Shown here piece after piece: positions 7,758 through 26,543 of a DNA stretch of 33,089 bases. Position numbers and translations under genes: made by a program. The DNA is from a virus (taxonomy: Duplodnaviria > Heunggongvirae > Uroviricota > Caudoviricetes), in IMG/VR virus record IMGVR_UViG_2861084961_000005. One strand, written 5' to 3'. Positions within the stretch are counted from its first letter, which is position 1, and the number at the start of each line of letters is the position of its first letter. The notes under the pieces are model-generated. The model made no database searches. It was given only the letters and a program-made list of their open reading frames with translations, and was not told where the DNA came from.

Positions 7758-7759
7758 TT

Positions 7760-8554
7760 GTGAATTATGGTTTACGCTCTAAAATGCAGGGATTCGCAAC
7801 AGATGCGGATCAAGCAGAATTTAATGCATTACTTGATGTTAGCGCGACAATAGACTCAGGAATTGAGGATGATAAAATTGCTGGAACTATCTATGATGAG
7901 TTAGAAAATTTAGATGGTCATTTGGAAGAAGAATGGATGATGGAAGATCAGGGAAAGGAGCTTTTAGTTGGTCAGATTGCCGAGCATATACAATGGAGAG
8001 CAAAGGTTTTGGATGATATGTATCCATTTGAATATAAAGAAAATCATCTAACATTAAAGGAGTCTCCTTCCCTTGTTTATCTGTTTTGCTTATGTGTCTC
8101 TGTAATTAATAATTTAACAAAAGGAGATAATGTTAAGTTGCCTAGATTTTTTGAAGTTATGGCTGGGCGATTATTCACAAAATTTTTTAGTTCACACGCA
8201 AAACACATGCATACTGGTTGGCCTCGTTCAAATGGAAATCCTAGTAGTTATAAGGAACTAGCTTATAAATTGAACTCTTCGATCTCACCAAATACAAGAG
8301 AATGGTCTTGGCGCGTAGAGAATGGCTTAAGAGATGAGGATGCATTGAGAATTAAAGATTGTGGTGTGGATTTTGTTACATGGGTTGATTTTTTGGATGG
8401 TAGAGATGGACGTTTATTTGCTTTAGGGCAATGCGCTTGTGGTAATGATTGGCCAACAAAGTTTCAGGATATTAAAATTGAAAGGTTAACACCATGGTTT
8501 CATCCATTAACTTACATTAAGTGTGTTAAAGTTTTCTCACACCTTATGTGTTAG
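7760..8554 (+). CDS. Hypothetical protein (264 aa), co-operonic partner of the ParB-like gene
   Basis: GTG 7760 lies 2 nt after the upstream TAA stop with GAGGG 9 nt upstream (translational coupling); alternative ATG at 7784. Acidic N-terminal third, Cys/His-containing C-terminal third, no motif I recognise. Confidence 0.65.
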   Translation: MNYGLRSKMQGFATDADQAEFNALLDVSATIDSGIEDDKIAGTIYDELENLDGHLEEEWMMEDQGKELLVGQIAEHIQWRAKVLDDMYPFEYKENHLTLKESPSLVYLFCLCVSVINNLTKGDNVKLPRFFEVMAGRLFTKFFSSHAKHMHTGWPRSNGNPSSYKELAYKLNSSISPNTREWSWRVENGLRDEDALRIKDCGVDFVTWVDFLDGRDGRLFALGQCACGNDWPTKFQDIKIERLTPWFHPLTYIKCVKVFSHLMC

Positions 8555-8693
8555 TTGATGAAATGATAAGAGAAGCAAGCGCAGAAGCTGGAATATATTT
8601 GATCGAGTCCGTTAACTATTGCATATGAGCGTTTTAAGGATGAATTTGGTGATATGCAGGATGAGTTAGATGCGTTAATTACTTTTGTAAAGA

Positions 8694-8717
8694 ATTAAAA
8701 AAGCCCAGTGATGGGCC
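8694..8717 (-). terminator. Candidate rho-independent terminator for the minus-strand methyltransferase transcript
   Basis: Minus-strand reading: hairpin GCCCATCACTGGGC followed by TTTTTT, immediately downstream of the methyltransferase 3' end. Confidence 0.4.
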
Positions 8718-8741
8718 ATTACCATATATCAGGGATGTTTC

Positions 8742-9718
8742 TCACAACCGCTTCAAACAAAGGTGGTGGAACTGCATTACTACGACCTTATATCTCTCTT
8801 TTAACATCCGTGCGGCCCCAAAACTATCCATGTCAGGAAAAGTTAGATAACCACCATGATTGGTATATTCTTTACTAAACCCTTGCAGAATCGCCGCTTC
8901 TTTATAAGAGAAGCGTCTGGCTGGCGAGTTTGTTATAAACTCCCACTTGTCCATACCCACTTTTTTAATTCGGGGCTGATGGGATGCAAGGAATATGACG
9001 AAGATTACTTACGATAGTTTTACTAACTTCGTCCCAGTTGCGGCGTCTATTCCTAGATAAATAGTACCAGTGAAATGGGTCATCACAAAACTCACCGATT
9101 GGCCATTCAGGTAATCCCTTTAGTGCTTCACCGATTGTTACATAAGGTAATGATTTTTCCTCACCATGTGTGGCTTCAGGGAATTTATATTCTAGGTCGA
9201 AGTCGTTACGAATACCTACAATTATTAATCTCTTACGCTCTTGCGGTACACCGTAGTGGTGAGCTTTGAGTATATTCCAAACAACTTTATAGCCTATATT
9301 ACCAGCATTGGAGAAGCGTTTATTGATCATCGAGTAGATGCTTAAATGTACTATTTCTCATACCTGAAACATTTTCGACAATAAATGCTTTAGGTTGAAT
9401 ATTGGTTAATGCACGTGCAAACTCTTTATATAAAATTTATACTCCTGTCCGCAGACGTGCGCCACCTTGGCTAAATCCTTGGCATGGATAGCATCCAACA
9501 AGAAGGTCTGCACTCGGAAATTTTTCAACTTCTCGGATATCTTGGATTAGGTAATCTGTTTCTGGTAGGTTTGCGAGATAAACCTCTCTCGCATATGGCA
9601 AAATATCGTTTGCCATAACGATGTCGAAACCAGCTTTGCTTAATCCAGCATCGGAACCACCACAACCCGAGAACAATGATACAGCTTTTGGCATTTTCTC
9701 CCCCTGATAAACCGGCAA
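8742..9718 (-). pseudogene. DNA (cytosine-5)-methyltransferase, disrupted by an in-frame stop and frameshifts
   Basis: Motif I FSGCGG and motif IV PCQ in ORF 9437..9718; in-frame TAA at 9437..9439; motif VI FIVENV in the same frame downstream; motif VIII YGVPQERKR in ORF 8965..9330 (different frame); motif X-like RRFSYKEAAILQGF in ORF 8742..8960 (third frame). Confidence 0.75.
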
Positions 9719-9900
9719 GAGTATAGCTTTTTATATGGCTACTGCATACATCATCCTTATAAATGGCAGTTTCTGGTGTATGCATGGACGTGAATTTTTT
9801 TGCATGCATTAGCTTTACTTATTTGAAGTATTGTCCGTGACGTCTGGTGCGCTTCCAACGTATTCATGAAACTGCATTAAAAGCGCCCATGAAGCGGGCG

Positions 9901-9919
9901 GGCGAGGCGGGGAAAGCAC
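9901..9919. other. cos site (19-nt cohesive end, P2/186 type)
   Basis: GGCGAGGCGGGGAAAGCAC matches the P2 cohesive-end sequence as I recall it; lies in a GC-rich non-coding stretch just downstream of portal gene Q, as in P2. Confidence 0.65.
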
Positions 9920-10059
9920 TGCGCGCTGGCGGTGGTGCTGATTTTATTTTCCAGCGTCTCAGCGCGTCGTGACGGCGCTTAGTCTGCCCGTTGGGGGTTG
10001 GTGTGTCTGCGGGGTGTTTTGTGCGGTGGTGAGCGTGTGAGGGCGTGATGGCGGGTTGT

Positions 10060-10086
10060 AAAAAAGCCGCCCGCAGGCGGCGATGT
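10060..10086 (-). terminator. Candidate rho-independent terminator of the P-Q operon
   Basis: Minus-strand reading: GCCGCCTGCGGGCGGC hairpin followed by TTTTTT, directly after the Q stop codon. Confidence 0.5.
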
Positions 10087-11114
10087 TCAGCCGTTGTCAG
10101 TGTCCAGTGAGTAGTTTTTAAAGCTGATGACTCCTGACCGAGCCAGCCGTTTATCTCGCGGATCCTGTCCTGTAGCGGGATAAGCTCATTGCGGACAAAG
10201 ACCTTTGCCACTTTCTCAATATCACCAGCGACCCGACGTTCTCCGGCTTGCCGCCATCAACTGAAAGGGGATGCGGTGCGCGTCCAGCAGGTCAGCGGCG
10301 CTGGCTTTTTTGATATTAAAAAAATCGTCCTTCGTTGCCACTTCACTGAGCGGGATAATTTTAATGCCGTCAGCTTTCCCCTGCGGGGCATAGAGAAACA
10401 GGTTTTTAAAGTTGTTGCGGCTTTCGACTTGACCATGTTTTCGCGGAGCATTTCGATATCGTTGCGATCCTGCACGGCATCGGTGACGTACATGATGTAT
10501 CCGGCATGTGCGCCGTTTTCGTAATACTTGCGGCGGAACAGCGTGGCCGACTCATTCAGCCAGGCAGAGTTAAGGGCGCTGAGATATTCCGGCAGGCCGT
10601 ACAGTTCCTGATTAATATCCGGCTCCAGCAGATGAAACACGGAGCCGGGCGCGAAAGGTGTCGGCTCGTTGAAGGACGGCACCCACCAGTAAACATCCTC
10701 CTCCACGCACGGCGGGTATATTTTGCCGGTGAGGTTTCCAGTCTGATGACCTTACCGGTGGTGCTGTAACGCTTTTCCAGAAACGCATTACCGAACACCA
10801 GAAAATCCAGCACAAAGCGGCTGAAATCCTGCTGGGAAAGCCACGGATGCGGGATAATGTCGAGGCCAGAATATTACGTTTGACGTAAATCGGTGAGCTG
10901 TGATGCACGGCAGCACGCAGGCTTTTTGCAGACCGGTAAAGCTGACCGGCGGCTCATACCATCTGCCGTTACTGATGCACTCGACGTAATCCAGAATGTC
11001 ACGGCGGTCGAGTACCGGCACCGGCTCACCAAAGGTGAATGCCTCCATTTTCGGGGCGCTGGCGGTCATTGTTTTTGCCGCAGGTTGCGGTGTTTTCCCT
11101 TTTTTCTTGCTCAT
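10087..11114 (-). CDS. Q: Portal protein (P2 gpQ family); reading frame interrupted several times
   Basis: N-terminus MSKKKGKTPQPAAK... from ATG 11114; portal segments continue in ORFs 10612..10908, 10556..10813, 10257..10706 and 9864..10211, each in a different frame; stop TGA at 10089..10087 in the frame carrying the recalled P2 Q C-terminus. Confidence 0.85.
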
Positions 11115-12882
11115 CAGTAAAACTCCAGAATGGTGGATGTCAGCGGGGTGCTGATACCGGCGGTGAGTGGCTCATTTAACAGGGCGTGCATGGTCGCCCA
11201 GGCGAGGTCGGCGTGGCTGGCTTCCTCGCTGCGGCTGGCCTCATAGGTGGCGCTGCGTCCGCTGCTGGTCATGGTCTTGCGGATAGCCATAAACGAGCTG
11301 GTGATGTCGGTGGCGCTGACGTCATATTCCAGACAGCCACGGCGGATAACGTCTTTTGCCTGAGCACCATTGCGGTTTTCATTTCCGGCGTGTAGCGGAT
11401 ATCGCGCGCGGCGGGATAGAACGAGCGCACGAGCTGGAACACGCCGACACCGAGGCCGGTGGCATCAATACCGATGTATTCAACGTTATATTTTTCGGTG
11501 AGTTTGCGGATGGATTCCGCCTGGGTGGCAAAGTCCATGCCTTTCCACTGGTGACGCTCAAGTATTCTGAATTTGCCACCGGCCACCACCGGCGGTGCCA
11601 GCACCACGCATCCGGCGCTGTCGCCACGGTGTGACGGGTCGTAACCAATCCATACCGGGCGGGAGCCGAACGGATTGGCGGCAAATGGTGCATAGTCTTC
11701 CCATTCTTCCAGCGTGTCGACCATGCAGCGTTGCAGCTCCTCGAACGGGAACACCGACGCCTTGTCGTCAACAAATTCACACATGAACAGGTTTTTAAAA
11801 TCGTCGGCGCTGTTTTCGCGTTTGAGCTGCTCAATGTCGAACAGCGTGCAGCCGCCTTTCAGGGCGTCCTCAATGGTGACAATCTGCCGCCACTGGCCGT
11901 CCGCACAGAGAAGACCTCCGGCAAGGGCGTTATGACTGACGTCGATTTCCACGCGTTCGGCGGCGCTGGCGCGTCCCCGGTTAAACAGTTCACCCGACCA
12001 GAACGGGTAGGCGTCGTGCGCCAGCGTGGACGGGGTGGAGAAATAGGTCGAACGCAGGTGACTCTGTGAGGCCATACCTGATGCACCTTACGCAGTACCT
12101 GAAAATTCGGGATCCAGAAAATCTCGTCGACGTACAGGTCGCCGTTATGGCTCTGTGCGGTGTTGGAGTTGGTGCCGAGAAAATCAGTTTTGCGCCGTTA
12201 TTGCCCAGGACAATCGGGTCACCGGTCAGGTCAACGTCAACCAGCCGGGCAAAGGCGATGATGTATTCGCGGAACACATACGCCTGCGTTTTACTGGCCG
12301 ACAGAAAAATCTGGTTATGACCGGTTTTCAGGGCGCGCAGCAGCGCCTCGCGGGAAAAATAAAACGTCGCGCCAATCTGGCGGGATTTCAGGATATCGCG
12401 GATGCGGTGCTCAAGCCCGGCGCGATACCAGTGCAACTGATATTCGAAAGACTGCTCAAAGAAAATCTGCTCCAGCTTTTCGATGGCTTCGTCACTGAAA
12501 AAATTCTTTTTCGGTTTGCGACGCCAGCCTTTGTTGCGGTTAGCGATGTTCGGATTAAGGTCTGCCTCGTTGCCGGTCTGGCTGTAACGGTTGACCCGTG
12601 CCAGTCGTTCAATCTGGCGTCCCAGCAGGTCAATTTCCTTGAAGTCCCCGCCGGTTTTCTGCGGTTTGATGATGAGCTGGGTCAGCCGCGCTTCCAGACT
12701 CATTTCGACACGGCTGATGGGGGCAACGCTGTCCCAGCCGTCGCGCTGTTTCCAGCTCTGCACCGTCGGGCGTTTCATCTGCAACATGGCGGCAATCTGC
12801 GGCACGGAAATCCCTGCCAGTACAGCAGCGCCGCCTGACGACGCGGGTCGTGTAAAAGAGTGGTGTCTGTGGTGATGGTCAT
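11114..12882 (-). CDS. P: Terminase large (ATPase) subunit (P2 gpP family); reading frame interrupted
   Basis: ATG 12882..12880 gives MTITTDTTLLHDPRRQAALL...; bulk in ORFs 11990..12907 and 11269..12075 in different frames; stop TGA 11116..11114 overlaps the Q start. Confidence 0.85.
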
Positions 12883-13055
12883 GAATACCTCGCCGTAATG
12901 AATACACGGCAAGGCTACTGAGTCGCGTCCCGCGATTCGCTAAGGTGCTGTTGTGTCAGTGATAAGCCATCCGGGACTGATGGCGGAGGATGCGCATCGT
13001 CGGGAAACTGATGCCGACATGTGACTCCTCTAATCACTATTCAGGACTCCTGACA
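12883..13055. promoter_or_regulatory. Divergent late-promoter region between P/Q (leftward) and O-N-M-L (rightward)
   Basis: Non-coding gap between divergently oriented operons; no Ogr-type dyad could be pinned down by eye. Confidence 0.35.
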
Positions 13056-13905
13056 ATGGCAAAAAAGTCTCAAAATTCTTTCGTATCGGCGTTGAGGGTG
13101 ACACCTGTGACGGGCGTGTCATCAGTGCGCAGGATATTCAGGAAATGGCCGAAACTTTGACCCGCGTGTCTATGGTTGCCGTATTAACCTGGAACATCTG
13201 CGCGGCATCCTGCCTGACGGTATTTTTAAACGTTATGGTGATGTGGCCGAACTGAAGGCCGAAAAGATTGACGATGATTCGGCGCTGAAAGGCAAATGGG
13301 CGCTGTTTGCGAAAATCACCCCGACCGATGACCTTATCGCGATGAACAAGGCCGCGCAGAAGGTCTATACCTCAATGGAAATTCAGCCGAACTTTGCCAA
13401 CACCGGCAAATGTTATCTGGTGGGGCTGGCCGTCACCGATGACCCGGCAAGCCTCGGCACGGAATACCTGGAATTCTGCCGCACGGCAAAACACAACCCC
13501 CTGAACCGCTTCAAATTAAGCCCTGAAACCTGATTTCAGTGGCAACGCCTGTTGAGCTGGAATTTGAAGACCTGCCTGAAACGTGTTCACCGCCCTGACC
13601 GAAAAGGTGAAGTCCATTTTGGCCGCAAACAGGCCAGCGATGATGCCCGTCTGAATGACGTGCATGACGCGGTGACCGCTGTTGCTGAACATGTGCAGGA
13701 AAAACTGAGCGCCACTGAGCAGCGCCTCGCTGAGATGGAAACCGCCTTTTCCGCACTTAAGCAGGAGGTGACTGACAGGGCGGATGAAACCAGCCAGGCA
13801 TTCACCCGCCTGAAAAACAGTCTCGACCACACCGAAAGTCTGACCCAGCAGCGCCGCAGCAAGGCCACCGGTGGTGGCGGTGACGCCCTGATGACGAACT
13901 GCTGA
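13056..13905 (+). CDS. O: Capsid scaffolding protein (P2 gpO family); reading frame interrupted
   Basis: ATG 13056 (MAKK...); body split between ORFs 13243..13533 and 13552..13905 in different frames; first break at the A-run 13061..13066. Confidence 0.85.
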
Positions 13906-13963
13906 CCGGCGTCAGTCAGTCCGGGAAAACCTTCACGATTAACCCTTAATTTCAGGAAAAACT

Positions 13964-15036
13964 ATGCGCCAGGAAACCCGCTTTAAATTTAATGCCTACC
14001 TGTCCCGTGTTGCCGAACTGAACGGCATCGACGCCGGTGATGTGTCGAAAAAATTCACCGTTGAACCGTCGGTCACCCAGACCCTGATGAACACCATGCA
14101 GGAGTCCTCTGACTTTCTGACCCGCATCAATATTGTGCCGGTCAGCGAAATGAAAGGGGAAAAATTGGCATCGGTGTCACCGGCTCCATCGCCAGCACCA
14201 CCGACACCGCCGGGGGCACCGAGCGTCAGCCGAAGGACTTCTCGAAGCTGGCGTCTAACAAGTACGAATGCGACCAGATTAACTTCGATTTTTATATCCG
14301 CTACAAAACGCTGGACCTGTGGGCGCGTTATCAGGATTTCCAGCTCCGTATCCGTAACGCCATTATCAAACGCCAGTCCCTTGATTTCATCATGGCCGGT
14401 TTTAACGGCGTGAAGCGTGCAGAAACCTCTGACCGCAGCAGCAATCCGATGCTGCAGGATGTGGCGGTCGGCTGGCTGCAGAAATACCGCAATGAAGCCC
14501 CGGCGCGCGTGATGAGCAAGGTCACTGACGAGGAAGGTCGCACCACCTCTGAGGTCATCCGCGTGGGTAAGGGCGGTGATTATGCCAGCCTTGATGCACT
14601 GGTGATGGATGCGACCAACAACCTGATTGAACCGTGGTATCAGGAAGACCCTGACCTTGTGGTGATTGTGGGACGTCAGTTACTGGCGGACAAGTATTTC
14701 CCCATCGTCAACAGGGAGCAGGACAACAGCGAAATGCTGGCCGCTGACGTCATCATCAGCCAGAAACGCATCGGTAACCTGCCGGCGGTACGCGTCCCGT
14801 ACTTCCCGGCGGATGCGATGCTCATCACAAAGCTGGAAAACCTGTCCATCTACTACATGGATGACAGCCATCGCCGCGTGATTGAGGAAAACCCGAAACT
14901 CGACCGCGTGGAGAACTACGAGTCAATGAACATTGATTACGTGGTGGAAGACTACGCCGCCGGTTGTCTGGTGGAAAAAATTAAGGTCGGTGATTTCTCC
15001 ACGCTGGCTAAAGCGACCGCAGAGCCGGGAGCGTAA
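13964..15036 (+). CDS. N: Major capsid protein (P2 gpN family); one frame break
   Basis: N-terminal 66 aa in ORF 13964..14413, then the protein continues in the next frame through ORF 14392..15036; junction at A-run 14160..14164. Confidence 0.9.
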
Positions 15037-15039
15037 CCG

Positions 15040-15782
15040 ATGACGAGTCCCGCACAGCGCCACATGATGCGGGTCTCGGCAGCGATGACCGCGCAGCGGG
15101 AAGCCGCCCCGCTGCGACATGCAACTGTCTATGAGCAGATGCTGGTCAAGCTGGCCGCAGACCAGCGCACACTGAAAGCGATTTATTCAAAAGAGCTGAA
15201 GGCCGCGAAAAAGCGCGAACTGCTGCCGTTCTGGTTGCCGTGGGTGAACGGCGTGCTGGAGCAGGGCAAAGGTGCACAGGATGACATTCTGATGACGGTC
15301 ATGCTGTGGCGTCTGGATACCGGCGATATTGCCGGTGCGCTGGAGATTGCCCGTTATGCCCTGAAGTATGGTCTGACCATGCCGGGGAAACACCGCCGCA
15401 CCCCGCCGTACATGTTCACCGAGGAGGTGGCGCTCGCGGCCATGCGCGCTCATGCTGCCGGTGAGTCTGTGGATACCCGCCTGCTGACGGAGACCCTTGA
15501 ACTGACCGCCGTTGCTGACATGCCTGATGAAGTGCGCGCAAAGCTGCACAAAATCACCGGTCTGTTTCTGCGTGACGGTGGAGATGCCGCCGGTGCGCTG
15601 GCTCACCTGCAACGTGCGACACAGCTCGACTGTCAGGCAGGCGTCAAAAAGAGATTGAACGACTGGAGCGGGAGCTGAAACCGAAGCCGGAGCCGCAGCC
15701 AAAAGCGGCCACCCGCGCCCCGAGTAAGACCCGGAGCGTGACACCGGCAAAACGTGGACGCCCGAAAAAGAAAGCCAGTTAA
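15040..15782 (+). CDS. M: Terminase small (endonuclease) subunit (P2 gpM family); one frame break near the 3' end
   Basis: ORF 15040..15678 then basic C-terminal tail ...KPKPEPQPKAATRAPSK...KKKAS in the next frame ending TAA 15780..15782; junction at A-run 15646..15650. Confidence 0.85.
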
Positions 15783-15881
15783 CAACCGAATGCGCCCCGC
15801 GCCAGGGCGGCACGCCGGTCAGTGACGGTGAATTACCTGACACTGCACCGGCGTCCACCGCCCGACTTTTCAGAGGTAGTC

Positions 15882-16388
15882 ATGATGACGCTGATTATTC
15901 CGCGAAAGGAGGCTCCCGTGTCCGGTGAGGGTACGGTGGTCATCCCGCAACCGGCAGGCGACGAGCCGGTGATTAAAACACGTTCTTTTTTCCCGATATC
16001 GACCCGAAGCGCGTCCGGGAACGTATGCGCCTTGAGCAGACCGTCGCCCCTGCCCGTCTGCGTGAGGCCATCAAGTCAGGCATGGCGGAGACGAATGCGG
16101 AGCTGTACGAGTACCGCGAACAGAAAATTGCTGCCGGTTTACGCGTCTGGCGGACGTCCCGGCGGACGACATCGACGGTGAAAGCATCAAAGTTTTTTAC
16201 TACGAGCGCGCCGTGTGTGCGATGGCGACCGCGTCGCTTTATGAGCGTTACCGCGGCGTGGATGCCAGTGCGAAAGGCGACAAGAAGGCTGACAGCATTG
16301 ACAGCACCATTGATGAACTGTGGCGGGATATGCGCTGGGCGGTGGCGCGTATCCAGGACAAGCCGCGCTGCATCGTGAGTCAAATCTG
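15882..16388 (+). CDS. L: Head completion protein (P2 gpL family); reading frame interrupted
   Basis: ATG 15882 (MMTLIIPRKEAPVSGEG...); continues in ORF 16025..16378 frame (MRLEQTVAPARLREAIKSGMAETNAELYEY...) and ends ...RCIVSQI-stop at 16386..16388. Confidence 0.8.
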
Positions 16389-16592
16389 ATGAAGACCTTT
16401 GCGCTACAGGGCGACACGCTCGACGCCATTTGTGTCCGGTATTACGGGCGCACTGAGGGCGTGGTCGAAGCCGTGCTCGCCGCAAATCCGGGACTGGCTG
16501 AACTGGGTGCGGTGCTGCCACACGGCACCGCCGTCGAACTGCCCGACGTTCAGACCGCGCCCGTGGCTGAAACTGTCAATCTGTGGGAGTAA
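16389..16592 (+). CDS. X: Tail protein X (LysM-like)
   Basis: 67 aa MKTFALQGDTLDAICVRYYG... from ATG 16389; position after L as in P2. Confidence 0.8.
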   Translation: MKTFALQGDTLDAICVRYYGRTEGVVEAVLAANPGLAELGAVLPHGTAVELPDVQTAPVAETVNLWE

Positions 16593-16595
16593 CGC

Positions 16596-16877
16596 ATGAC
16601 AGCAGAAGAAAAAAGCGTCCTGTCGCTTTTCATGATTGGGGTGCTGATTGTTGTCGGCAAGGTGCTTGCCGGTGGTGAACCCATCACCCCGCGTCTGTTT
16701 ATCGGACGCATGTTGCTCGGTGGTTTTGTCTCGATGGTTGCCGGTGTTGTTCTGGTGCAGTTTCCTGACCTGTCACTGCCTGCGGTGTGCGGCATCGGCT
16801 CCATGCTGGGTATCGCCGGTTATCAGGTGATTGAGATTGCCATTCAGCGTCGCTTTAAGGGCAGGGGGAAACAGTAA
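16596..16877 (+). CDS. Y: Holin (P2 gpY family)
   Basis: 93 aa with hydrophobic transmembrane stretches and a basic C-terminus; immediately precedes the endolysin. Confidence 0.8.
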   Translation: MTAEEKSVLSLFMIGVLIVVGKVLAGGEPITPRLFIGRMLLGGFVSMVAGVVLVQFPDLSLPAVCGIGSMLGIAGYQVIEIAIQRRFKGRGKQ

Positions 16878-17373
16878 TGCCGGTAATTAACACGCATCAG
16901 AATATCGCCGCCTTTCTCGACATGCTGGCGGTATCCGAAGGGACGGCGAATCATCCGCTGACGAAAAACCGTGGCTATGACGTGATAGTCACCGGACTGG
17001 ACGGGAAGCCGGAAATTTTCACCGACTACAGTGACCACCCGTTCGCACATGGCCGACCGGCGAAGGTGTTTAACCGTCGCGGTGAAAATCCACGGCCTCC
17101 GGTCGCTATCAGCAGCTTTACCTGTTCTGGCCGCACTACCGCAAACAGCTTGCCCTGCCGGATTTCAGTCCGTTGTCACAGGACAGACTCGCCATTCAGT
17201 TGATCCGCGAACGCGGTGCACTGGATGACATCCGGGCGGGACGCATTGAGCGCGCCATTTCACGCTGTCGCAATATCTGGGCGTCCCTGCCGGGTGCCGG
17301 TTACGGTCAGCGTGAGCATTCACTGGAAAAACTGGTCACCGTCTGGCGTACCGCCGGCGGCGTACCGGCTTAA
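16877..17373 (+). CDS. K: Endolysin (P2 gpK family); one frame break
   Basis: ORF 16877..17203 joined to ORF 17173..17373 in another frame; junction at A-run 17085..17088. Confidence 0.85.
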
Positions 17374-17387
17374 ACGGAGTAAACACC

Positions 17388-17726
17388 ATGAAGAAATTAT
17401 CCCTTTCACTGATGCTGAACGTGTCGCTGGCGCTGATGCTGGCACTGTCCCTGATTTACCCGCAGAGCGTGGCCGTCAGTTTTGTCGCTGCCTGGGCGAT
17501 TCTGGCGACGGTTATCTGTGTGGTTGCCGGTGGTGTCGGCGTGTATGCCACTGAGTATGTGCTGGAACGCTACGGGCGGGAGCTGCCGCCGGAATCGCTG
17601 GCCGTGAAGATTGTCACGGCGCTGTTTTTGCAGCCGGTGCCGTGGCGCAGACGGGCGGCGGCTCTGGTGGTGATGGTGGCGACATTTATCTCGCTGGTCG
17701 CCGCCGGGTGGATTTTACCGCGCTGA
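17388..17726 (+). CDS. lysA: Lysis timing membrane protein (P2 LysA-like)
   Basis: 112 aa, strongly hydrophobic, directly after K. Confidence 0.7.
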   Translation: MKKLSLSLMLNVSLALMLALSLIYPQSVAVSFVAAWAILATVICVVAGGVGVYATEYVLERYGRELPPESLAVKIVTALFLQPVPWRRRAAALVVMVATFISLVAAGWILPR

Positions 17727-19311: not shown

Positions 19312-19946
19312 ATGAACACTCTCGCAAATATTCAGGAACTCGCGCGCGCACTGCGCAACATGATCCGCACCGGCATTATCGTCGAAACCGACCTTAACGC
19401 CGGTCGCTGCCGTGTGCAGACCGGCGGCATGTGCACCGACTGGCTTCAGTGGCTGACCCATCGCGCCGGACGTTCGCGCACATGGTGGGCACCTTCCGTG
19501 GGGGAACAGGTGCTGATTCTGGCCGTGGGCGGTGAACTCGACACGGCGTTCGTTCTGCCGGGGATTTATTCCGGCGATAACCCCGCGCCGTCTACGTCGG
19601 CGGATGCCCTGCATATCCGTTTCCCTGACGGGGCGGTGATTGAGTATGAACCCGAAACCAGTGCACTCACGGTAAGCGGAATTAAAACGGCCAGCGTGAC
19701 GGCTTCTGATTCTGTTACTGCCACGGTGCCGGTGGTCATGGTGAAAGCGTCAACCCGCATCACCTGGACACCCCGGAGGTGGTCTGCACCAACAGACTGA
19801 TTACCGGCACGCTGGAAGTGCAGAAGGGCGGGACGATGCGCGGCAACATTAAACATACCGGCGGTGAACTCTCATCAAACGGTAAGGTACTGCATACCCA
19901 TAAACACCCCGGCGACAGCGGCGGCACAACCGGGAGTCCTCTATGA
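19312..19946 (+). CDS. V: Baseplate assembly protein (P2 gpV family); one frame break near the 3' end
   Basis: ORF 19312..19800, then continues in the next frame to ...GSPL-stop at 19944..19946, which overlaps the W start; junction near 19761..19765. Confidence 0.85.
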
Positions 19947-20290
19947 CAGCGCGTTATCTTGGAATGAATCGCAGTGATGGCCTGACTGTCACTGACCTTG
20001 AGCATATCAGCCAGAGTATCGGCGATATCCTGCGCACGCCGGTCGGCTCACGGGTGATGCGTCGTGATTACGGCTCATTGCTGGCGTCAATGATTGACCA
20101 GCCGCAGACCCCGGCGCTTGAGTTGCAGATTAAGGTCGCCTGTTACATGGCGGTGCTGAAATGGGAACCCCGCGTCACCCTGTCATCCGTCACCACTGAG
20201 CGCAGTTTTGACGGGCGAATGACGGTCACGTTAACCGGTCAGCACAACGACACCGGCCAGCCACTTTCGTTAACCATCCCTGTGAGTTGA
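19943..20290 (+). CDS. W: Baseplate protein (P2 gpW family)
   Basis: 115-aa intact ORF. Confidence 0.85.
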   Translation: MTARYLGMNRSDGLTVTDLEHISQSIGDILRTPVGSRVMRRDYGSLLASMIDQPQTPALELQIKVACYMAVLKWEPRVTLSSVTTERSFDGRMTVTLTGQHNDTGQPLSLTIPVS

Positions 20291-20294
20291 AACC

Positions 20295-21203
20295 ATGCCG
20301 ATTATCGACCTGAACCAGCTACCCGCACCGGATGTGGTCGAGGAGCTGGACTTTGAAACCATTCTTGCCGAACGCAAGGCGACACTGATTTCCCTTTACC
20401 CGGAAGACCAGCAGGAGGCGGTTGCCCGTACCCTGACGCTGGAATCCGAGCCTCTCGTCAAACTGCTGGAGGAAAATGCTTATCGTGAGCTTATCTGGCG
20501 TCAGCGTGTGAATGAGGCCGCACGGGCGGTAATGCTGGTCTGTGCCGCCGGTAATGACCTTGATGTGATTGGTGCCAATTACAACACCACGCGCCTGATT
20601 ATCACCCCGGCAGATGATTCGACCATCCCGCCGACACCGGCAGTGATGGAGTCTGACACCGATTATCGTCTGCGTATTCAGCAGGCGTTTGAGGGCTTAA
20701 GCGTCGCCGGGTCGGTGGGAGCCTATCAGTATCATGGTCGCAGTGCCGACGGGCGTGTCGCGGATATTTCTGTCACCAGTCCGTCTCCGGCCTGCGTCAC
20801 CATCTCTGTGCTGTCACGTGAAAATAACGGTGTGGCATCCGAAGACCTGCTGGCGGTGGTGCGCAACGCCCTTAATGGTGAGGACGTCAGACCGGTGGCC
20901 GACCGTGTGACCGTGCAGTCTGCCGTCATCGTTGAATACCAGATAAATGCCACGCTTTACCTTTATCCTGGCCCCGAAAGCGAACCCATTCGCGCTGCCG
21001 CCGTGAAAAAATTGGAAGCGTATATCACGGCACAGCACCGGCTGGGGCGCGACATCCGACTGTCTGCCATTTATGCCGCTTTGCATGTGGAAGGCGTGCA
21101 GCGTGTCGAACTGGCTGCACCGCTGGCCGACATCGTGCTCAACAATACGCAGGCGTCTTTCTGTACCGAATACAGCGTCGTGACCGGAGGCTCGGATGAG
21201 TGA
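20295..21203 (+). CDS. J: Baseplate protein (P2 gpJ family)
   Basis: 302-aa intact ORF. Confidence 0.85.
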   Translation: MPIIDLNQLPAPDVVEELDFETILAERKATLISLYPEDQQEAVARTLTLESEPLVKLLEENAYRELIWRQRVNEAARAVMLVCAAGNDLDVIGANYNTTRLIITPADDSTIPPTPAVMESDTDYRLRIQQAFEGLSVAGSVGAYQYHGRSADGRVADISVTSPSPACVTISVLSRENNGVASEDLLAVVRNALNGEDVRPVADRVTVQSAVIVEYQINATLYLYPGPESEPIRAAAVKKLEAYITAQHRLGRDIRLSAIYAALHVEGVQRVELAAPLADIVLNNTQASFCTEYSVVTGGSDE

Positions 21204-21807
21204 TTCGCGACTGCTGCCGACCGGCTCATCACCGCTTGAAGTCGCTGCCGCAAAAGCCTGTGCGGAAATTGAAAAAACGCCGGTCAGTATTCGTAAGCTG
21301 TGGAACCCGGACACCTGCCCGGCAAATCTGCTGCCGTGGCTGGCGTGGTCATTTTCGGTTGACCGCTGGGATGATAAGTGGCCGGAAGCGACAAAACGCG
21401 CTGTTATCCGCGATGCGTATTTCATTCACTGCCATAAGGGCACTATAGGCGCAATCCGGCGTGTGGTGGAGCCGCTCGGCTATCTGATTGAGGTGAGGGA
21501 GTGGTGGCAGCTCAACGAGGAGCCGGGGACGTTCCGCATCGTTGTTGGCGTGCTTGAGCAGGGTATTACCGAGGAAATGTATCAGGAGCTGGAGCGCCTC
21601 GTTACTGATGCAAAACCGGCAAGCCGCCATCTGACGGGACTGGCTATCAGTTTAAGTACAACCGGCAACATTTTTGCCGGTGCGGGATGCTATCACGGCG
21701 ACGCCCTGACGGTTTATCCCTACACCCCGGAGGCCATTATTGTCGGAGGGGATTATTTCCCGGCCTCGGCCATTCATTTAATTGATAACCTGAGAGTAAA
21801 CGCATGA
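21196..21807 (+). CDS. I: Baseplate protein (P2 gpI family)
   Basis: 203-aa ORF overlapping the J stop and the H start. Confidence 0.8.
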   Translation: MSDSRLLPTGSSPLEVAAAKACAEIEKTPVSIRKLWNPDTCPANLLPWLAWSFSVDRWDDKWPEATKRAVIRDAYFIHCHKGTIGAIRRVVEPLGYLIEVREWWQLNEEPGTFRIVVGVLEQGITEEMYQELERLVTDAKPASRHLTGLAISLSTTGNIFAGAGCYHGDALTVYPYTPEAIIVGGDYFPASAIHLIDNLRVNA

Positions 21808-23309
21808 CAGTGAAATACTACGCCATTCTGACTAATCAGGGCGCGGCACGGCTGGCTAACGCGACGATGCTCGGCAGTAAGCTGAATCTGACGCAAATGG
21901 CCGTTGGTGATGCGAATGGTGTCTTGCCGACACCAGACCCGGCACAGACAAAACTGATTAATCAGAAACGCATTGCACCGCTGAATCTTCTGAGTGTTGA
22001 CCCGAACAACCAGAGCCAGATTATTGCGGAGCAAATCATCCCTGAGAACGAGGGCGGATTCTGGATCCGTGAGATTGGGCTTTATGATGATGAAGGCGTA
22101 CTCATTGCGGTGGCGAACTGCCCGGAAACGTACAAACCGCAGTTGCAGGAAGGCAGTGGTCGTACCCAGACTATCCGCATGATTCTGGTTGTCACGAATA
22201 CCGAAGCTATTACGCTGAAAATCGACCCATCGGTGGTACTGGCGACCCGTAAATACGTGGATGATGAAGTCCTGGAATTAAGGCTGTATGTGGATGAACA
22301 GATGAGAAACCACATTGCCGCACAGGATCCTCATACCCAGTATGCACAGAAACATAATCCGACATTTACCGGAGAACCAAAAGCGCCGACGCCTGCCGCA
22401 GGAAATAACACCACGCGGATTGCGACCACTGAGTTTGTTCAGGCCGCTATTACCGCTCTGATTAACGGTGCGCCAGCCACGCTGGACACACTGAAAGAAA
22501 TTGCCGCAGCCATTAACAATGACCCGAAATTCAGCACCACCATTAACAATGCGCTGGCACTGAAAGCTCCGCTGTCGAGTCCCGCACTTACCGGAACGCC
22601 AACAGCACCTACTGCGGCACAGTCGGTCAACAATACACAGATTGCCACCACGGCTTTTGTGAAATCAGCAATTGCGGCAATGGTGGGTTCTGCCCCTGCG
22701 GCACTGGATACACTGAATGAACTGGCGGCGGCGCTGGGGAATGACCCTAACTTTTCAACAACAGTGCTTAATGCACTGGCAGGCAAACAACCGCTGGACA
22801 ATACGCTGACTAATTTGAGTGGAAAGGATGTTGCTGGTCTTCTCGCATACCTTGGTTTGGGAGAAGGTGCTCCAGCTATTGGCGTTCCGTTCTTCTGGCC
22901 GTCCGCTGCAATGCCAAATACTGTAATCGACAGCTGGTCCAGTATGGTGTTTTTGAAGTTCAACGGGGCGAAATTTTCTGCCTCTGATTACCCTGTGCTG
23001 GCGAAAGTGTTTCCTTCACTGGTATTACCTGAAGCCCGCGGTGATTTCATTCGTATCTGGGATGACGGGCGAGGTGCCGATGGTGGTCGCGAATTATTAA
23101 GCTGGCAGGAAGCTACAAACTTTTCTCAGTTTGCCGGGAATATAGGCGGAGGTGCGGGACACGCAATTAACTTTCATGATGGCATCGCCGGAAATCAGCC
23201 AGGATTTTCACGATTTAATTTCACCAGTAACTCTGTGGGTGATGGTGTGAATTTTGTTGCTGTCAGACCGCGAAATATTGCATTTAACTTTCTGGTGAGG
23301 GCTAAATAA
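21804..23309 (+). CDS. H: Tail fibre protein (P2 gpH family); C-terminal 148 aa lie inside the invertible segment
   Basis: 501 aa; internal tandem duplication of an approximately 55-aa unit; the left invertase crossover site is embedded at codons ...LLAYLGLGEG. Confidence 0.85.
   Translation: MTVKYYAILTNQGAARLANATMLGSKLNLTQMAVGDANGVLPTPDPAQTKLINQKRIAPLNLLSVDPNNQSQIIAEQIIPENEGGFWIREIGLYDDEGVLIAVANCPETYKPQLQEGSGRTQTIRMILVVTNTEAITLKIDPSVVLATRKYVDDEVLELRLYVDEQMRNHIAAQDPHTQYAQKHNPTFTGEPKAPTPAAGNNTTRIATTEFVQAAITALINGAPATLDTLKEIAAAINNDPKFSTTINNALALKAPLSSPALTGTPTAPTAAQSVNNTQIATTAFVKSAIAAMVGSAPAALDTLNELAAALGNDPNFSTTVLNALAGKQPLDNTLTNLSGKDVAGLLAYLGLGEGAPAIGVPFFWPSAAMPNTVIDSWSSMVFLKFNGAKFSASDYPVLAKVFPSLVLPEARGDFIRIWDDGRGADGGRELLSWQEATNFSQFAGNIGGGAGHAINFHDGIAGNQPGFSRFNFTSNSVGDGVNFVAVRPRNIAFNFLVRAK
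22840..22865. repeat. Left crossover site of the invertible segment (gix/pix-like 26-mer)
   Basis: TTCTCGCATACC-TT-GGTTTGGGAGAA; its right half is the exact reverse complement of the left half of the site at 24623..24648. Confidence 0.6.
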
Positions 23310-23902
23310 TGAAACCTGTTTTTGATGAAAATGGGCTGGCTACAGTGCCGGGCGATATGCGTTGTTTTTATTATGATGCTGAAACATCTGAGTATACGGG
23401 CTGGTCTGATGAATATATTAATACTGGCGTAAGTATGCCCGCCTGTTCCACTGGTATTGACCCGGGCGAATACATTCCGGGGAAAGTGGCAGTATTTACG
23501 GGTAAGGGATGGAGCCATGAAGAAGACCACCGCAATGAGACTGTTTACTCAATCGAAAATGGCGCAGCTGTTACAGTGGATTATATCGGTGCCATCAAAG
23601 ACGGTTATGTCACGCTTTCACCGTTAACGCCATACGATAAATGGGATGGTGAGAAATGGGTGACAGATACTGAGGCACAGCATAGCGCCGCAGTAGATGC
23701 AGCAGAAGCACAGCGCCAGTCGCTGATTGATACTGCAATGGCTTCCATCAGTCTGATTCAACTGAAATTGCAGGCCGGACGTAAACTGACGCAGGCAGAA
23801 ACCACCCGACTTAACGCTGTGCTGGATTACATTGACGCGGTGACGGCAACAGATACCAGCACCGCGCCGGATGTCATCTGGCCTGAACTGCCGGAGGCGT
23901 AG
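23309..23902 (+). CDS. G: Tail fibre assembly chaperone (P2 gpG / Tfa)
   Basis: 197-aa ORF directly after H; C-terminus ...[15 protein letters not shown] resembles the C-terminus of the oppositely oriented copy. Confidence 0.8.
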   Translation: MKPVFDENGLATVPGDMRCFYYDAETSEYTGWSDEYINTGVSMPACSTGIDPGEYIPGKVAVFTGKGWSHEEDHRNETVYSIENGAAVTVDYIGAIKDGYVTLSPLTPYDKWDGEKWVTDTEAQHSAAVDAAEAQRQSLIDTAMASISLIQLKLQAGRKLTQAETTRLNAVLDYIDAVTATDTSTAPDVIWPELPEA

Positions 23903-24332
23903 GCCATTCAATATCTGGCGCACTGGAGGTATCAACCAGTTCCAGTGCGTTCAGATAATCCAGCCACAAATTATATTGCGCCAGTTCCTCACCATTCAGA
24001 CGACCAATAGCCGCTTTACCAGGCCATTGTTTACTGTTCATGTATTCGTTGGCATGGTTAATCAATAATTGCCTCTCTGATTCGGCCTGTTCAATAAGTT
24101 CCTCATGTGATGGTGGAGGTATTTCAACCCATGCAGGATTGCCATAACCGTCCGACCCTCTGATTTTTCCAGTCGGCGGGAATCCTAAAAACTCGGTTGC
24201 ATCCTCCTCGCTAATATCAGTGAATGTGGCGATTTCATCTTCGCTCAATTTATAATCGGAAATTGACGCGGCAGGATAGAATAATGCATTCTTTGGATCA
24301 AATTTATACATTTCAATCACCCCGCTATCCAT
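23874..24332 (-). CDS. Alternative tail fibre assembly chaperone (Tfa'), inverted orientation
   Basis: 152-aa minus-strand ORF ending ...[17 protein letters not shown], parallel to the gpG C-terminus. Confidence 0.75.
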
Positions 24333-24622
24333 CTGTATGCGACTGGCATACTTCCAACCTGTGAAACAGAAAACCCCTGCCTCGATTTTCGCAACACATT
24401 TACGGCCCCTTTATTTGCTCCTGTATCTGCTGCACAAACGATAACTTCGAAATCGTCATACGGAAATGGTATCGGGAATAAAATGTTAGTTTGACTTGAT
24501 GTCATAGCAAATCCCCGCTGTATTATTCTCCCCGACGGGTCTCTATTCCATCCTGTCCCAGATGTCCATTCTGACATACTAGGTATCTGATTTTCCCCTG
24601 TTCCCACATTCCGTTTTGCCGC
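24317..24622 (-). other. Alternative tail fibre C-terminal coding segment, currently unfused (would join H after inversion)
   Basis: Minus-strand frame reads ...[18 protein letters not shown]... starting inside the right crossover site, mirroring ...LGLGE-GAPAIG... at the H junction; no start of its own. Confidence 0.65.
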
Positions 24623-24648
24623 TTCTCCCAAACCAACGTTTATGAAAA
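24623..24648. repeat. Right crossover site of the invertible segment
   Basis: TTCTCCCAAACC-AA-CGTTTATGAAAA: two 12-bp half sites around a 2-bp core, the same architecture as Gin/Hin sites. Confidence 0.6.
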
Positions 24649-24702
24649 TGCAGAGATAACGGGCAAGTGGCATCATCTCCGGTTTTTATTCAGGGGATGC
24701 TC

Positions 24703-25294
24703 ATGCTTATTGGCTATGTACGCGTGTCAACAAATGACCAGAACACGGAATTGCAGCGTAACGCGCTGGAGTGCGCAGGATGTGAGCTGATTTTTGAGGA
24801 TAAAATCAGCGGCACGAAGTCCGACAGGCCGGGGCTGAAAAACTGCTCAGAACATTATCGGAAGGTGACACTCTGGTTGTCTGGAAGCTGGACCGGCTGG
24901 GGCGTAGTATGCGGCATCTGGTCATTCTGGTTGAGGAGCTGCGCGAACGCGGCATTAATTTTCGCAGCCTGACGGATGCCATTGATACCAGTACGCCGAT
25001 GGGGCGTTTTTCTTTCATGTGATGGGTGCCCTGGCTGAAATGGAACGAGAGCTCATTGTCGAGCGGACTCGGGCCGGGCTGGAAGCGGCCAGAGCCAAAG
25101 GTCGTATTGGTGGCAGACGTCCTAAACTCACCGCGAGTGAGTGGGAGCAGGCCGGGCGTTTGCTGGCTGCAGGGGAGTCACGTCAACGCGTGGCACTGAT
25201 TTTTGATATTGGTCTGTCCACGCTCTATAAAAAATTTCCCTCATCAGCGACAAAGAATAAATTGTGTCATCCCTTAGCCAACCGGGACAAATAG
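24703..25294 (+). CDS. Serine recombinase, DNA invertase (Gin/Pin/Hin family); two frame breaks
   Basis: [22 protein letters not shown] (catalytic Ser region) in ORF 24667..24972; C-terminal HTH part in ORF 25019..25294; the middle segment ...[17 protein letters not shown]... is in a third frame; breaks at A-run 24838..24842 and T-run 25007..25011. Confidence 0.85.
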
Positions 25295-25353
25295 CCTGAC
25301 ATCTCCGGCACAACTGAAAATACCACTCACCCATTAACCACGGAGTTGAACGG

Positions 25354-26543
25354 ATGAGTGACTATCATCACGGCGTGCAGGTGCTGGAGATTAACGACGG
25401 CACCCGCGTCATTTCCACCGTATCCACTGCCATTGTCGGCATGGTCTGCACGGCCAGCGATGCGGATGCGGAAACCTTCCCCCTCAATAAACCGGTGCTG
25501 ATTACCAATGTGCAGAGCGCAATTGCAAAGGCCGGTAAAAAAGGCACGCTGGCGGCATCGTTGCAGGCCATCGCCGACCAGTCAAAACCGGTCACCGTTG
25601 TCGTGCGTGTGGAAGACGGCACCGGCGACGACGAGGAAACGAAACTCGCGCAGACCGTTTCCAATATCATCGGCACCACCGACGAAAACGGGCAGTACAC
25701 CGGACTGAAAGCCCTGCTGGCGGCGGAGTCGGTAACCGGTGTTAAACCGCGTATTCTCGGCGTGCCGGGACTGGACACCAAAGAGGTGGCTGTTGCACTG
25801 GCATCAGTCTGTCAGAAGCTGCGCGCTTTCGGGTATATCAGCGCATGGGGCTGTAAAACTATTTCCGAGGTGAAAGCCTACCGCCAGAATTTCAGCCAGC
25901 GTGAGTTGATGGTCATCTGGCCGGATTTCCTCGCATGGGATACGGTCACCAGTACCACCGCCACCGCGTATGCCACCGCCCGTGCGCTGGGTCTGCGCGC
26001 TAAAATCGACCAGGAGCAGGGCTGGCATAAAACACTGTCCAACGTTGGGGTGAACGGTGTTACCGGCATCAGCGCATCTGTATTCTGGGATTTGCAGGAG
26101 TCCGGCACCGATGCTGACCTGCTGAATGAGTCAGGCGTCACAACGCTGATTCGCCGTGACGGTTTCCGCTTCTGGGTAACCGTACCTGCTCTGATGACCC
26201 GCTGTTCCTCTTTGAAAACTACACCCGCACCGCGCAGGTGCTGGCCGACACGATGGCTGAGGCGCACATGTGGGCGGTGGACAAGCCCATCACCGCAACG
26301 CTGATTCGCGACATCGTTGACGGCATCAATGCCAAATTTCGTGAGCTGAAAACAAACGGCTATATCGTGGATGCGACCTGCTGGTTCAGCGAAGAATCCA
26401 ACGATGCGGAAACCCTCAAGGCCGGAAAACTGTATATCGACTACGACTATACCCCGGTGCCTCCTCTCGAAAACCTGACCCTGCGCCAGCGTATCACCGA
26501 TAAATATCTGGCAAATCTGGTCACCTCGGTTAACAGCAATTAA
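25354..26543 (+). CDS. FI: Tail sheath protein (P2 gpFI family); one frame break
   Basis: ORF 25354..26304 continues in ORF 26238..26543 frame; junction at G-run 26174..26176. Confidence 0.9.

Follow-up and report, generated by a model that had tools for sequence, protein, structure and literature searches.

A probable two-state invertible tail-fibre cassette of the Gin/Pin type in a P2-like prophage of Escherichia coli

The tail-fibre region of the viral DNA analysed here, a stretch of 33,089 nucleotides (the window), is very probably an invertible Din-type (Gin/Cin/Pin/Hin) cassette with two states, housed in a P2-like prophage of E. coli. Two alternative fibre ends, each with its own assembly chaperone, lie between inverted crossover sites beside a gene for a serine DNA invertase of the same family as the sites; either end fuses in frame to the constant part of the fibre, and E. 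coli genomes with either orientation exist in nature, their breakpoints falling inside the sites. An invertible fibre module is a real, functional and already known kind of phage device. Gin/Cin/Pin-type fibre cassettes are textbook systems, flipping in P2-like prophages of E. coli has already been demonstrated, and several RefSeq genomes contain this very module in annotated form, so that little new is added to the catalogue of such switches. The region nevertheless offers a clean worked example of how the two states of a switch can be read from public genomes alone and the breakpoints narrowed to 15–18 bp.

Judging by gene content, the carrier can be assigned to the P2-like (Peduoviridae) prophages of E. 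coli. The 99%-identical prophage of strain GPEC1258 has the P2 gene set in the P2 order (int, Cox, A, Q, P, O, N, M, L, X, the lysis genes, V-W-J-I-H-G, FI-FII-E-T-U-D and ogr), and the closest deposited phage, 500465-2, has been placed in Peduoviridae. With the tail sheath gene FI beginning at 25354, the module lies between G and FI, the slot in which the original prediction had located it. According to one survey, this hotspot of P2 often contains a DNA invertase, with the neighbouring genes inverted (bioRxiv 10.1101/2024.10.15.618418).

The two fibre ends and two Caudo_TAP chaperones of the module are arranged head-to-head (Table 1). The constant part of H, Hc, is identical among genomes of either orientation, and in the window orientation it continues into Hv, followed by tfa, the start of which overlaps the H stop codon. 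On the opposite strand lie the alternative fibre end H'v and a second chaperone gene, tfa', as originally proposed and as the open reading frames and Pfam domains bear out. The start of tfa' is placed at 24311 by PGAP (NCBI's annotation pipeline), giving 145 aa, while the longest open reading frame begins at 24332; in the annotation of strains E7, E5 and GPEC1258 the product is WP_032252818.1. Inversion in silico joins H'v to Hc in frame as an open reading frame of 455 aa, and this fibre is annotated intact in E5 and GPEC1258 (1368 nt, WP_052491316.1), which agrees with the earlier proposal that inversion exchanges both the end of H and its chaperone. In one orientation, automatic annotation breaks the intact 501-aa fibre into 'partial' pseudogenes.

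Hv and H'v have no detectable similarity to each other and belong to different families: Hv has a weak match to the Pfam Phage Tail Collar domain (E 0.008, under Pfam's cut-off), and H'v has a Gp53-like_C domain. Searches of the fibre ends against the sequences of solved structures gave marginal matches only (T4 gp37 for Hv, E 0.0095, and a putative tail fibre, E 0.1), and therefore no receptor can be assigned to either tip. NCBIfam placed neither the fibre nor the chaperone proteins in a specific family.

Table 1. Features of the invertible tail-fibre module, in window coordinates.
Feature	Position	Strand	Details	Basis
Constant part of H (Hc)	21804..22865	+	354 aa, C-terminus ...LAYLGLGE	ORF 21804-23309; Pfam Phage_tail_fib N-terminal domain, E 7e-63; PHROG 327 tail protein
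Left crossover site (pixL-like)	22840..22865	+	TTCTCGCATACC-TT-GGTTTGGGAGAA, core 22852-22853	Inverted repeat; 23/26 to e14 left site
Invertible segment	22853..24635		1783 bp, core to core	Reversed alignment to E. coli E5 and GPEC1258
Variable fibre end Hv	22866..23309	+	147 aa, expressed in window orientation; H then 501 aa	
tfa, tail-fibre assembly chaperone of Hv (P2 G equivalent)	23309..23902	+	197 aa	Pfam Caudo_TAP, E 3e-27; PHROG 105
tfa', second tail-fibre assembly chaperone	23874..24332	-	Silent in window orientation	Pfam Caudo_TAP, E 5e-31; PHROG 188
Alternative variable fibre end H'v	24317..24622	-	101 aa, silent in window orientation	Pfam Gp53-like_C, E 1.5e-8
Right crossover site (pixR-like)	24623..24648	+	TTCTCCCAAACC-AA-CGTTTATGAAAA, core 24635-24636	Inverted repeat; 26/26 to e14 right site
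Pin/Gin-type serine DNA invertase gene	24703..25294	+		Pfam Resolvase and HTH_7 on two fragments; PHROG 125 DNA invertase
Candidate Fis-dependent recombinational enhancer	24724..24787	+	Inside 5' end of invertase gene	Sequence conservation

The segment is bounded by the only long inverted pair that a repeat finder returned between 21000 and 26500, namely 22840-22866 against 24622-24648 (27 nt, 81% complementary, spaced by 1755 nt). This search and a comparison of the two 26-mers uphold the sites as first proposed, with a 2-bp core between 12-bp half-sites. The right site reads TTTTCATAAACG-TT-GGTTTGGGAGAA as its reverse complement, so the core and the inner half-site are identical to those of the left site (14/14), while the outer half-sites agree at 7/12 positions; dyad symmetry between half-sites, read directly off the sequences, holds at 10/12 positions on the left and at 8/12 on the right. 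The cores are non-palindromic, TT on the left and AA on the right of the + strand, which is the inverted orientation needed for inversion. Within H, the left site occupies the codons ...L-L-A-Y-L-G-L-G-E, which confirms by ORF reading the earlier placement at LGLGE, and the right site on the - strand encodes G-L-G-E-A-A-K-R-N... in the same frame, leading into the 101-aa fibre end and its tfa gene.

With up to two mismatches, the 33-kb window has exactly two matches to the 14-mer TTGGTTTGGGAGAA, against a chance expectation of 0.18, and a count of two was reached in 3 of 100 shuffles; the 15-nt inverted match by itself is thus only moderately improbable. The pair is placed beyond chance by its identity to the sites of the e14 P segment, 26/26 on the right and 23/26 on the left. 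A multi-site, shufflon-like system with at least three sites was also considered and ruled out. At up to two mismatches, the core together with the inner half-site matched these two sites only, and a half-site scan allowing three mismatches gave no additional plausible crossover site in the window, which leaves two sites with two states.

The neighbouring recombinase is of the Gin/Pin type, as originally proposed. Its open reading frame is split by two 1-nt homopolymer contractions, located by comparison with E. coli E7 (A6 to A5 at 24837 and T6 to T5 at 25006). The restored protein of 197 aa (WP_000905097.1) shares 87% identity with PinE and 80% with Gin, and it matches the Gin structure 3UJ3 over residues 1-182 (E 1e-94), with conservation of the RVSTNDQ motif that holds the active-site serine; NCBIfam gave sub-threshold, generic serine-recombinase matches only. 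Two G-N13-C cores lie in the 5' end of the gene, at 24724-24738 and 24773-24787. They are separated by 49 bp, some 95 bp away from the middle of the right site, and both are kept in register among the window gene, Mu gin and e14 pinE. The Hin enhancer is 65 bp long, with a Fis site at either end, and is found roughly 100 bp away from one hix site (PMC3798978), a description that the interval in the window fits; it is probably a Fis-dependent enhancer. No sigma-70 promoter for the invertase was recognisable, the promoter and terminator scan of 22700-25450 being at chance level.

Comparison of five complete genomes from different strains shows that flipping at these two sites has taken place in nature. 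As read, the region (3491 bp) aligns with E. coli E7 and APEC17 over 100% of its length at 99.9% identity, while a version flipped in silico precisely at the cores aligns end to end, in one piece, with strains 64.1, E5 and GPEC1258, also at 99.9%. Between E7 and GPEC1258, the left flank of 4063 bp is identical, the right flank of 3676 bp differs by 1 base, and the segment is reversed with 1 mismatch in a 1788-bp alignment that reaches a few bases into both sites. Relative to the window, E5 and GPEC1258 carry the segment in reverse orientation with both flanks forward, which maps the breakpoints between flipped and unflipped versions to 22852-22866 on the left and 24622-24639 on the right. Among 5426 E. 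coli genomes, the Hc/Hv junction was found in 34 and the Hc/H'v junction in 7. The original prediction would have been undermined by a single orientation coupled with a truncated invertase; both orientations are present in complete genomes, with breakpoints confined to the two sites, and this outcome favours the prediction. A flip within one lineage, on the view that strain B-766 (flipped) is the same as E. coli W (unflipped), was considered and dropped, since the left flanks of the two are not identical (70 differences in 6841 positions) and several protein accessions and the genome sizes differ as well; the two strains show related prophages in both states and nothing more.

The broken invertase frame raises the question of whether the switch still turns. 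If the gene were a true pseudogene, the segment would be locked in the Hv orientation unless another invertase of the Pin family flipped it in trans. The A5 and T5 tracts do break the frame as read, Din-family invertases complement each other, and many E. coli genomes hold several such modules (median 2, maximum 12 matching places per genome), which makes trans-acting invertases plausible. Against this stands the pattern of indels in the whole window. Compared with GPEC1258, the window has 45 deletions of 1-2 bases, nearly all within runs of the same base, and not one homopolymer expansion; the sole other indel is an in-frame insertion of 6 bp, and substitutions amount to only about 1%. The contractions fall in the portal, terminase, capsid scaffold, capsid, V, sheath, tape measure and D genes, among others, and taken as real they would inactivate these as well; such a pattern is typical of sequencing chemistry and not of gene decay. 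The two invertase frameshifts are probably errors because they belong to this window-wide set, and, given an intact copy of the identical gene in five genomes, including E7, E5 and GPEC1258, homopolymer miscalls explain them best. They are thus most likely sequencing errors rather than biology, and a frozen segment is unlikely. Whether the invertase is intact, a point that the original prediction had raised, therefore receives a divided answer: the gene is broken as read, while the identical gene of other genomes is intact and miscalling accounts best for the difference. More generally, the apparent pseudogenes of the window serve as a warning about homopolymer miscalls. It is very unlikely, too, that A6 and T6 are truly contracted in this isolate, so that its switch is locked or depends on the invertase of another prophage in the same cell; if that were true, one prophage would control the host range of another. 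In a weaker version of this idea, the near-identity of the right site and the invertase leader to those of e14 might indicate that exchange at the sites themselves, mediated by the invertase, carries Pin-type modules between lambdoid and P2-like phages.

The two database orientations might also have arisen without any invertase, through RecA-dependent homologous recombination between the inverted repeats or through errors of assembly, for either of which inverted repeats are in principle substrates, and the orientation evidence is comparative. The identity shared by the two sites, however, spans only 15 bp, less than the length needed for efficient RecA exchange. The breakpoints fall at sites like those of the e14 P segment, beside an 87% homologue of PinE, and clean flips with intact in-frame fibres are seen in five independent complete assemblies and in homologous prophages. 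Moreover, inversion in P2-like prophages has been demonstrated experimentally, with one locus confirmed by PCR (PMC4272514). Recombination through RecA or misassembly is accordingly an extremely improbable source of the two orientations.

Under the preferred reading, that of an invertase-driven switch, the small serine invertase, encoded just outside the segment, would bind the two 26-bp sites as dimers, assisted by host Fis bound to the enhancer within the initial ~100 bp of the invertase gene. The enzyme would cut both sites at the 2-bp core and turn one half by 180 degrees, and religation would leave the 1783 bp between the cores inverted; the Fis dependence and the chemistry of strand exchange are extended here from Mu, P1, e14 and Hin. 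The constant N-terminal part of H (354 aa) and a late promoter far upstream would stay in place. In the orientation as read, Hc and Hv would be made as a fibre of 501 aa, followed by tfa, and in the other orientation Hc and H'v as a fibre of 455 aa, followed by tfa'. A population of lysogens would then release two kinds of virion with different receptor-binding tips, and by analogy with the Mu G, P1 C and e14 P segments we infer a change of host range.

Among known systems, the closest is the P segment of e14, a cryptic prophage of E. coli K-12. In addition to the crossover sites and PinE compared above, the two share a common layout, in which a constant fibre part is followed by a bracket of variable end plus tfa and, head-to-head, tfa' plus the second variable end, with the invertase beyond it. 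The segments are of similar length (1783 bp in the window and about 1827 bp between the e14 cores), and the chaperones are related: tfa shares 64% identity with TfaE, and tfa' shares 67% with TfaP over its C-terminal half. The e14 element, however, is defective and lambdoid, whereas the window holds a complete P2-like myovirus, and the constant part in the window is a P2-type H fibre, unlike that of e14. The variable ends also differ, with Hv only 40% identical to StfE and H'v without a significant match to either e14 end.

The G segment of Mu with its invertase Gin belongs to the same class of mechanism and has the layout Sc-[Sv U / U' S'v]-gin; the C segment of P1 with Cin is of the same kind. 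In addition to the relatedness of Gin, the gix sites of Mu have the same 12-2-12 architecture as the sites in the window, and the 5' end of the invertase gene, which bears the enhancer in Mu gin, is conserved in the window gene. The G segment is longer, at 3 kb against 1.8 kb, gix reads TTCCTGTAAACC-GA-GGTTTTGGATAA with a core of GA instead of TT, and the fibre ends and chaperones of the window have no significant protein similarity to Mu S, U, U' or S'v. Invertible tail fibres are also known in P2-like phages, a further example being the Fin invertase of the Salmonella prophage Fels-2. The P2-like prophages of EPEC E2348/69 share both the phage family and the kind of switch with the window: sequencing revealed inversion in two of them, with orientations coexisting within single cultures (Goldberg et al. 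2014, PMC4272514). One of these two loci has three inverted repeats and four variants, and its inversion was also confirmed by PCR (PMC4272514), whereas the module in the window has two sites and two states.

The same prophage exists in E. coli in both orientations of the fibre segment, since strains E7 and APEC17 carry the region as read at 99.9% identity and 100% coverage, and the region inverted in silico finds an equally good, unbroken match in strains 64.1, E5 and GPEC1258. In direct alignment with E5, window 20804-22866 is identical, 22852-24639 is reversed and the sequence from 24622 onward is collinear, with homopolymer gaps as the sole differences. Between E7 and GPEC1258, the left 4063 bp are identical and the right 3676 bp contain 1 base difference, the exchange points being limited to 15-18 bp inside the two crossover sites, and essentially nothing further changes with the flip. 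A count over 5426 complete E. coli genomes gave 34 with the junction between the constant fibre part (Hc, 354 aa) and the variable end as read (Hv), and 7 with the junction between Hc and the alternative end (H'v); related prophages, for example in E. coli W and strain B-766, likewise occur in both states. The switch is real, and it is evidently active in intact relatives. The original prediction, a fibre-swapping inversion, is upheld in structure and interpretation; the anatomy of the module, the family of its enzyme and sites and the natural occurrence of both states are demonstrated.

Features of the fibre module and single-base contractions relative to E. coli E7 (window coordinates)
Feature	Position	Strand	Description
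H, tail-fibre gene	21804-23309	+	501 aa; P2-type N-terminal fibre domain, Pfam 7e-63
Hc end LGLGE	inner half of left site	+	encoded by that half-site
Hv, variable fibre end	3' of Hc	+	147 aa
tfa, tail-fibre assembly gene	23309-23902	+	Caudo_TAP
tfa', second tail-fibre assembly gene	23874-24332	-	Caudo_TAP
H'v, alternative fibre end	24317-24622	-	101 aa; Gp53-like C-terminal domain
Serine recombinase gene	24703-25294	+	just outside right site
Sheath gene FI	starts 25354		after recombinase gene
Contraction	24692		G5 in E7, G4 in window; upstream of invertase gene
Contraction	24837		A6 read as A5; in invertase gene
Contraction	25006		T6 read as T5; in invertase gene

The gene order agrees with that proposed from the sequence, in which the left site lies inside H at LGLGE, the opposite strand carries an alternative fibre end with a second tfa, and the module precedes FI. 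H'v and Hc share one G-L-G-E frame, which for H'v runs through the right site, and in-silico inversion of 22853-24635 fuses Hc to H'v in a 455-aa ORF, the predicted fibre being annotated as an intact gene in flipped genomes. RefSeq names the module genes tail fibre assembly protein, gp53-like domain-containing protein and recombinase family protein. As well, RefSeq treats the 455-aa form as a normal gene, but in genomes of the as-read orientation it breaks up the intact 501-aa H ORF and records two 'incomplete' pseudogene fragments (L001 3001-4506, E7; L007 6001-7284, W); the second fragment in E7 begins 2 nt into the left crossover site, and the split is an artefact of the mosaic fibre.

The predicted inverted 26-bp sites with a 2-bp core are confirmed where they were first placed (22840-22865 and 24623-24648); a repeat finder recovered them as the pair 22840-22866 / 24622-24648, complementary at 22 of 27 positions. 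The left site reads TTCTCGCATACC-TT-GGTTTGGGAGAA and the reverse complement of the right site TTTTCATAAACG-TT-GGTTTGGGAGAA, with core and inner half-site identical and the outer half-sites alike at 7/12 positions. The window has exactly two copies of core plus inner half-site where chance would give 0.18 (<=2 mismatches), a count that, taken alone, is not overwhelming. However, when set against the crossover sites of the e14 P segment (E. coli K-12), the right site equals its counterpart at 26/26 positions and the left one at 23/26, with the TT/AA core arrangement shared. The 12-2-12 build recurs in the Mu gix sites, whose sequence is different. Only these two sites are present in the window, hence only two states.

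The invertase gene as read is spread over three frames; window 20240-25691 is identical to E7 apart from the three deletions in the table. Across the whole window, GPEC1258 comparison yields 45 deletions of 1-2 bases, nearly all in homopolymer runs, with no homopolymer expansion. They lie at 8538-17712 (35 events), 19762, 24692, 24837, 25006, 26173, 28641, 29136, 30320, 31673 and 32098, clustering at 8.5-17.7 kb and absent from 19763-24691, and they put frameshifts into many late genes (those for portal, terminase, scaffold and capsid, together with V, sheath, tape measure and D). Because the homopolymer errors are one-directional and substitutions amount to only about 1%, the contractions look like sequencing error rather than gene decay, and apparent pseudogenes in the window are therefore untrustworthy. 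The sole non-deletion indel relative to GPEC1258, a 6-bp in-frame insertion of AGCCGC at 15691-15696 (3' end of the small terminase subunit gene), is for that reason probably a genuine difference. The restored 197-aa protein (WP_000905097.1) is intact in E7, E5 and GPEC1258; it shares 87% identity with PinE and 80% with Gin, and its residues 1-182 match the Gin crystal-structure sequence (E 1e-94).

[quoted passage not shown] Over its 5' end the invertase gene of the window aligns closely with gin and pinE, and all three share, in register, two G-N13-C cores (24724-24738 and 24773-24787 in the window). The spacing of the cores is 49 bp and their distance to the right-site centre about 95 bp, consistent with a candidate Fis enhancer. 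The best-supported mechanism is inversion of the segment by the Pin-type serine recombinase, probably with Fis, which would exchange the receptor-binding C-terminal end of H along with its cognate chaperone, while Hc and the late operon promoter would remain fixed. Expression would be limited to the cassette facing Hc, the opposite one being without a start of its own. From the models Mu, P1, e14 and Hin, we infer the strand-exchange chemistry, the Fis dependence and a consequence for host range.

The window is a P2-like E. coli prophage, and its right end carries a host gene. The 99% identical GPEC1258 prophage sits between cpxP and fieF, and its annotation covers the complete P2 gene set (integrase, Cox, replication endonuclease, portal, terminase, GPO scaffold, P2-family capsid, lysis genes, V-W-J-I, fibre, sheath, tube, tape measure, D and ogr), and Peduoviridae is the family assigned to 500465-2, the nearest deposited phage. 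Three cargo genes, which may form an island for defence or anti-defence, occupy the P2 old/tin hotspot between replication gene A and portal (window ~6582-9700; L003 7078-10203): a ParB_N-like protein of 391 aa with a match to PADLOC PD-Lambda-5_A over its N-terminal ~170 aa (E 3e-19), a 318-aa protein without a family match and, on the opposite strand, a C5 cytosine DNA methyltransferase (Pfam 2.6e-59). A separate 37,446-bp record (NZ_CP019275.1) of the pig isolate E. coli 13P477T likewise contains the Hc|H'v junction, at 96% identity; this record could represent an excised circle or a P2-like element that was assembled as a replicon in its own right.

Invertible fibre segments are classical, and the switch is of an already known kind, its gene layout equalling those of the Mu G segment with gin and the e14 P segment with pinE. 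In cultures of EPEC E2348/69, Goldberg et al. measured coexisting orientations at two P2-like loci, one of them a three-repeat locus confirmed by PCR (PMC4272514), in contrast to the two sites and two states of the window. A recent survey notes that the Z/fun hotspot in P2-like phages often harbours a DNA invertase and that the adjacent genes are inverted. The right site and invertase leader are nearly identical to those of e14 (24623-24702 vs L006 4606-4685, the e14 comparison sequence), unlike the fibre ends, Hv being only 40% identical to StfE and H'v lacking a significant match in e14. Phages of 33-43 kb such as vB_EcoM-606R2 also carry the invertible segment, along with most of the invertase gene, at 92% identity. 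Together, these patterns suggest that the site-plus-invertase module is exchanged horizontally between unrelated phage types.
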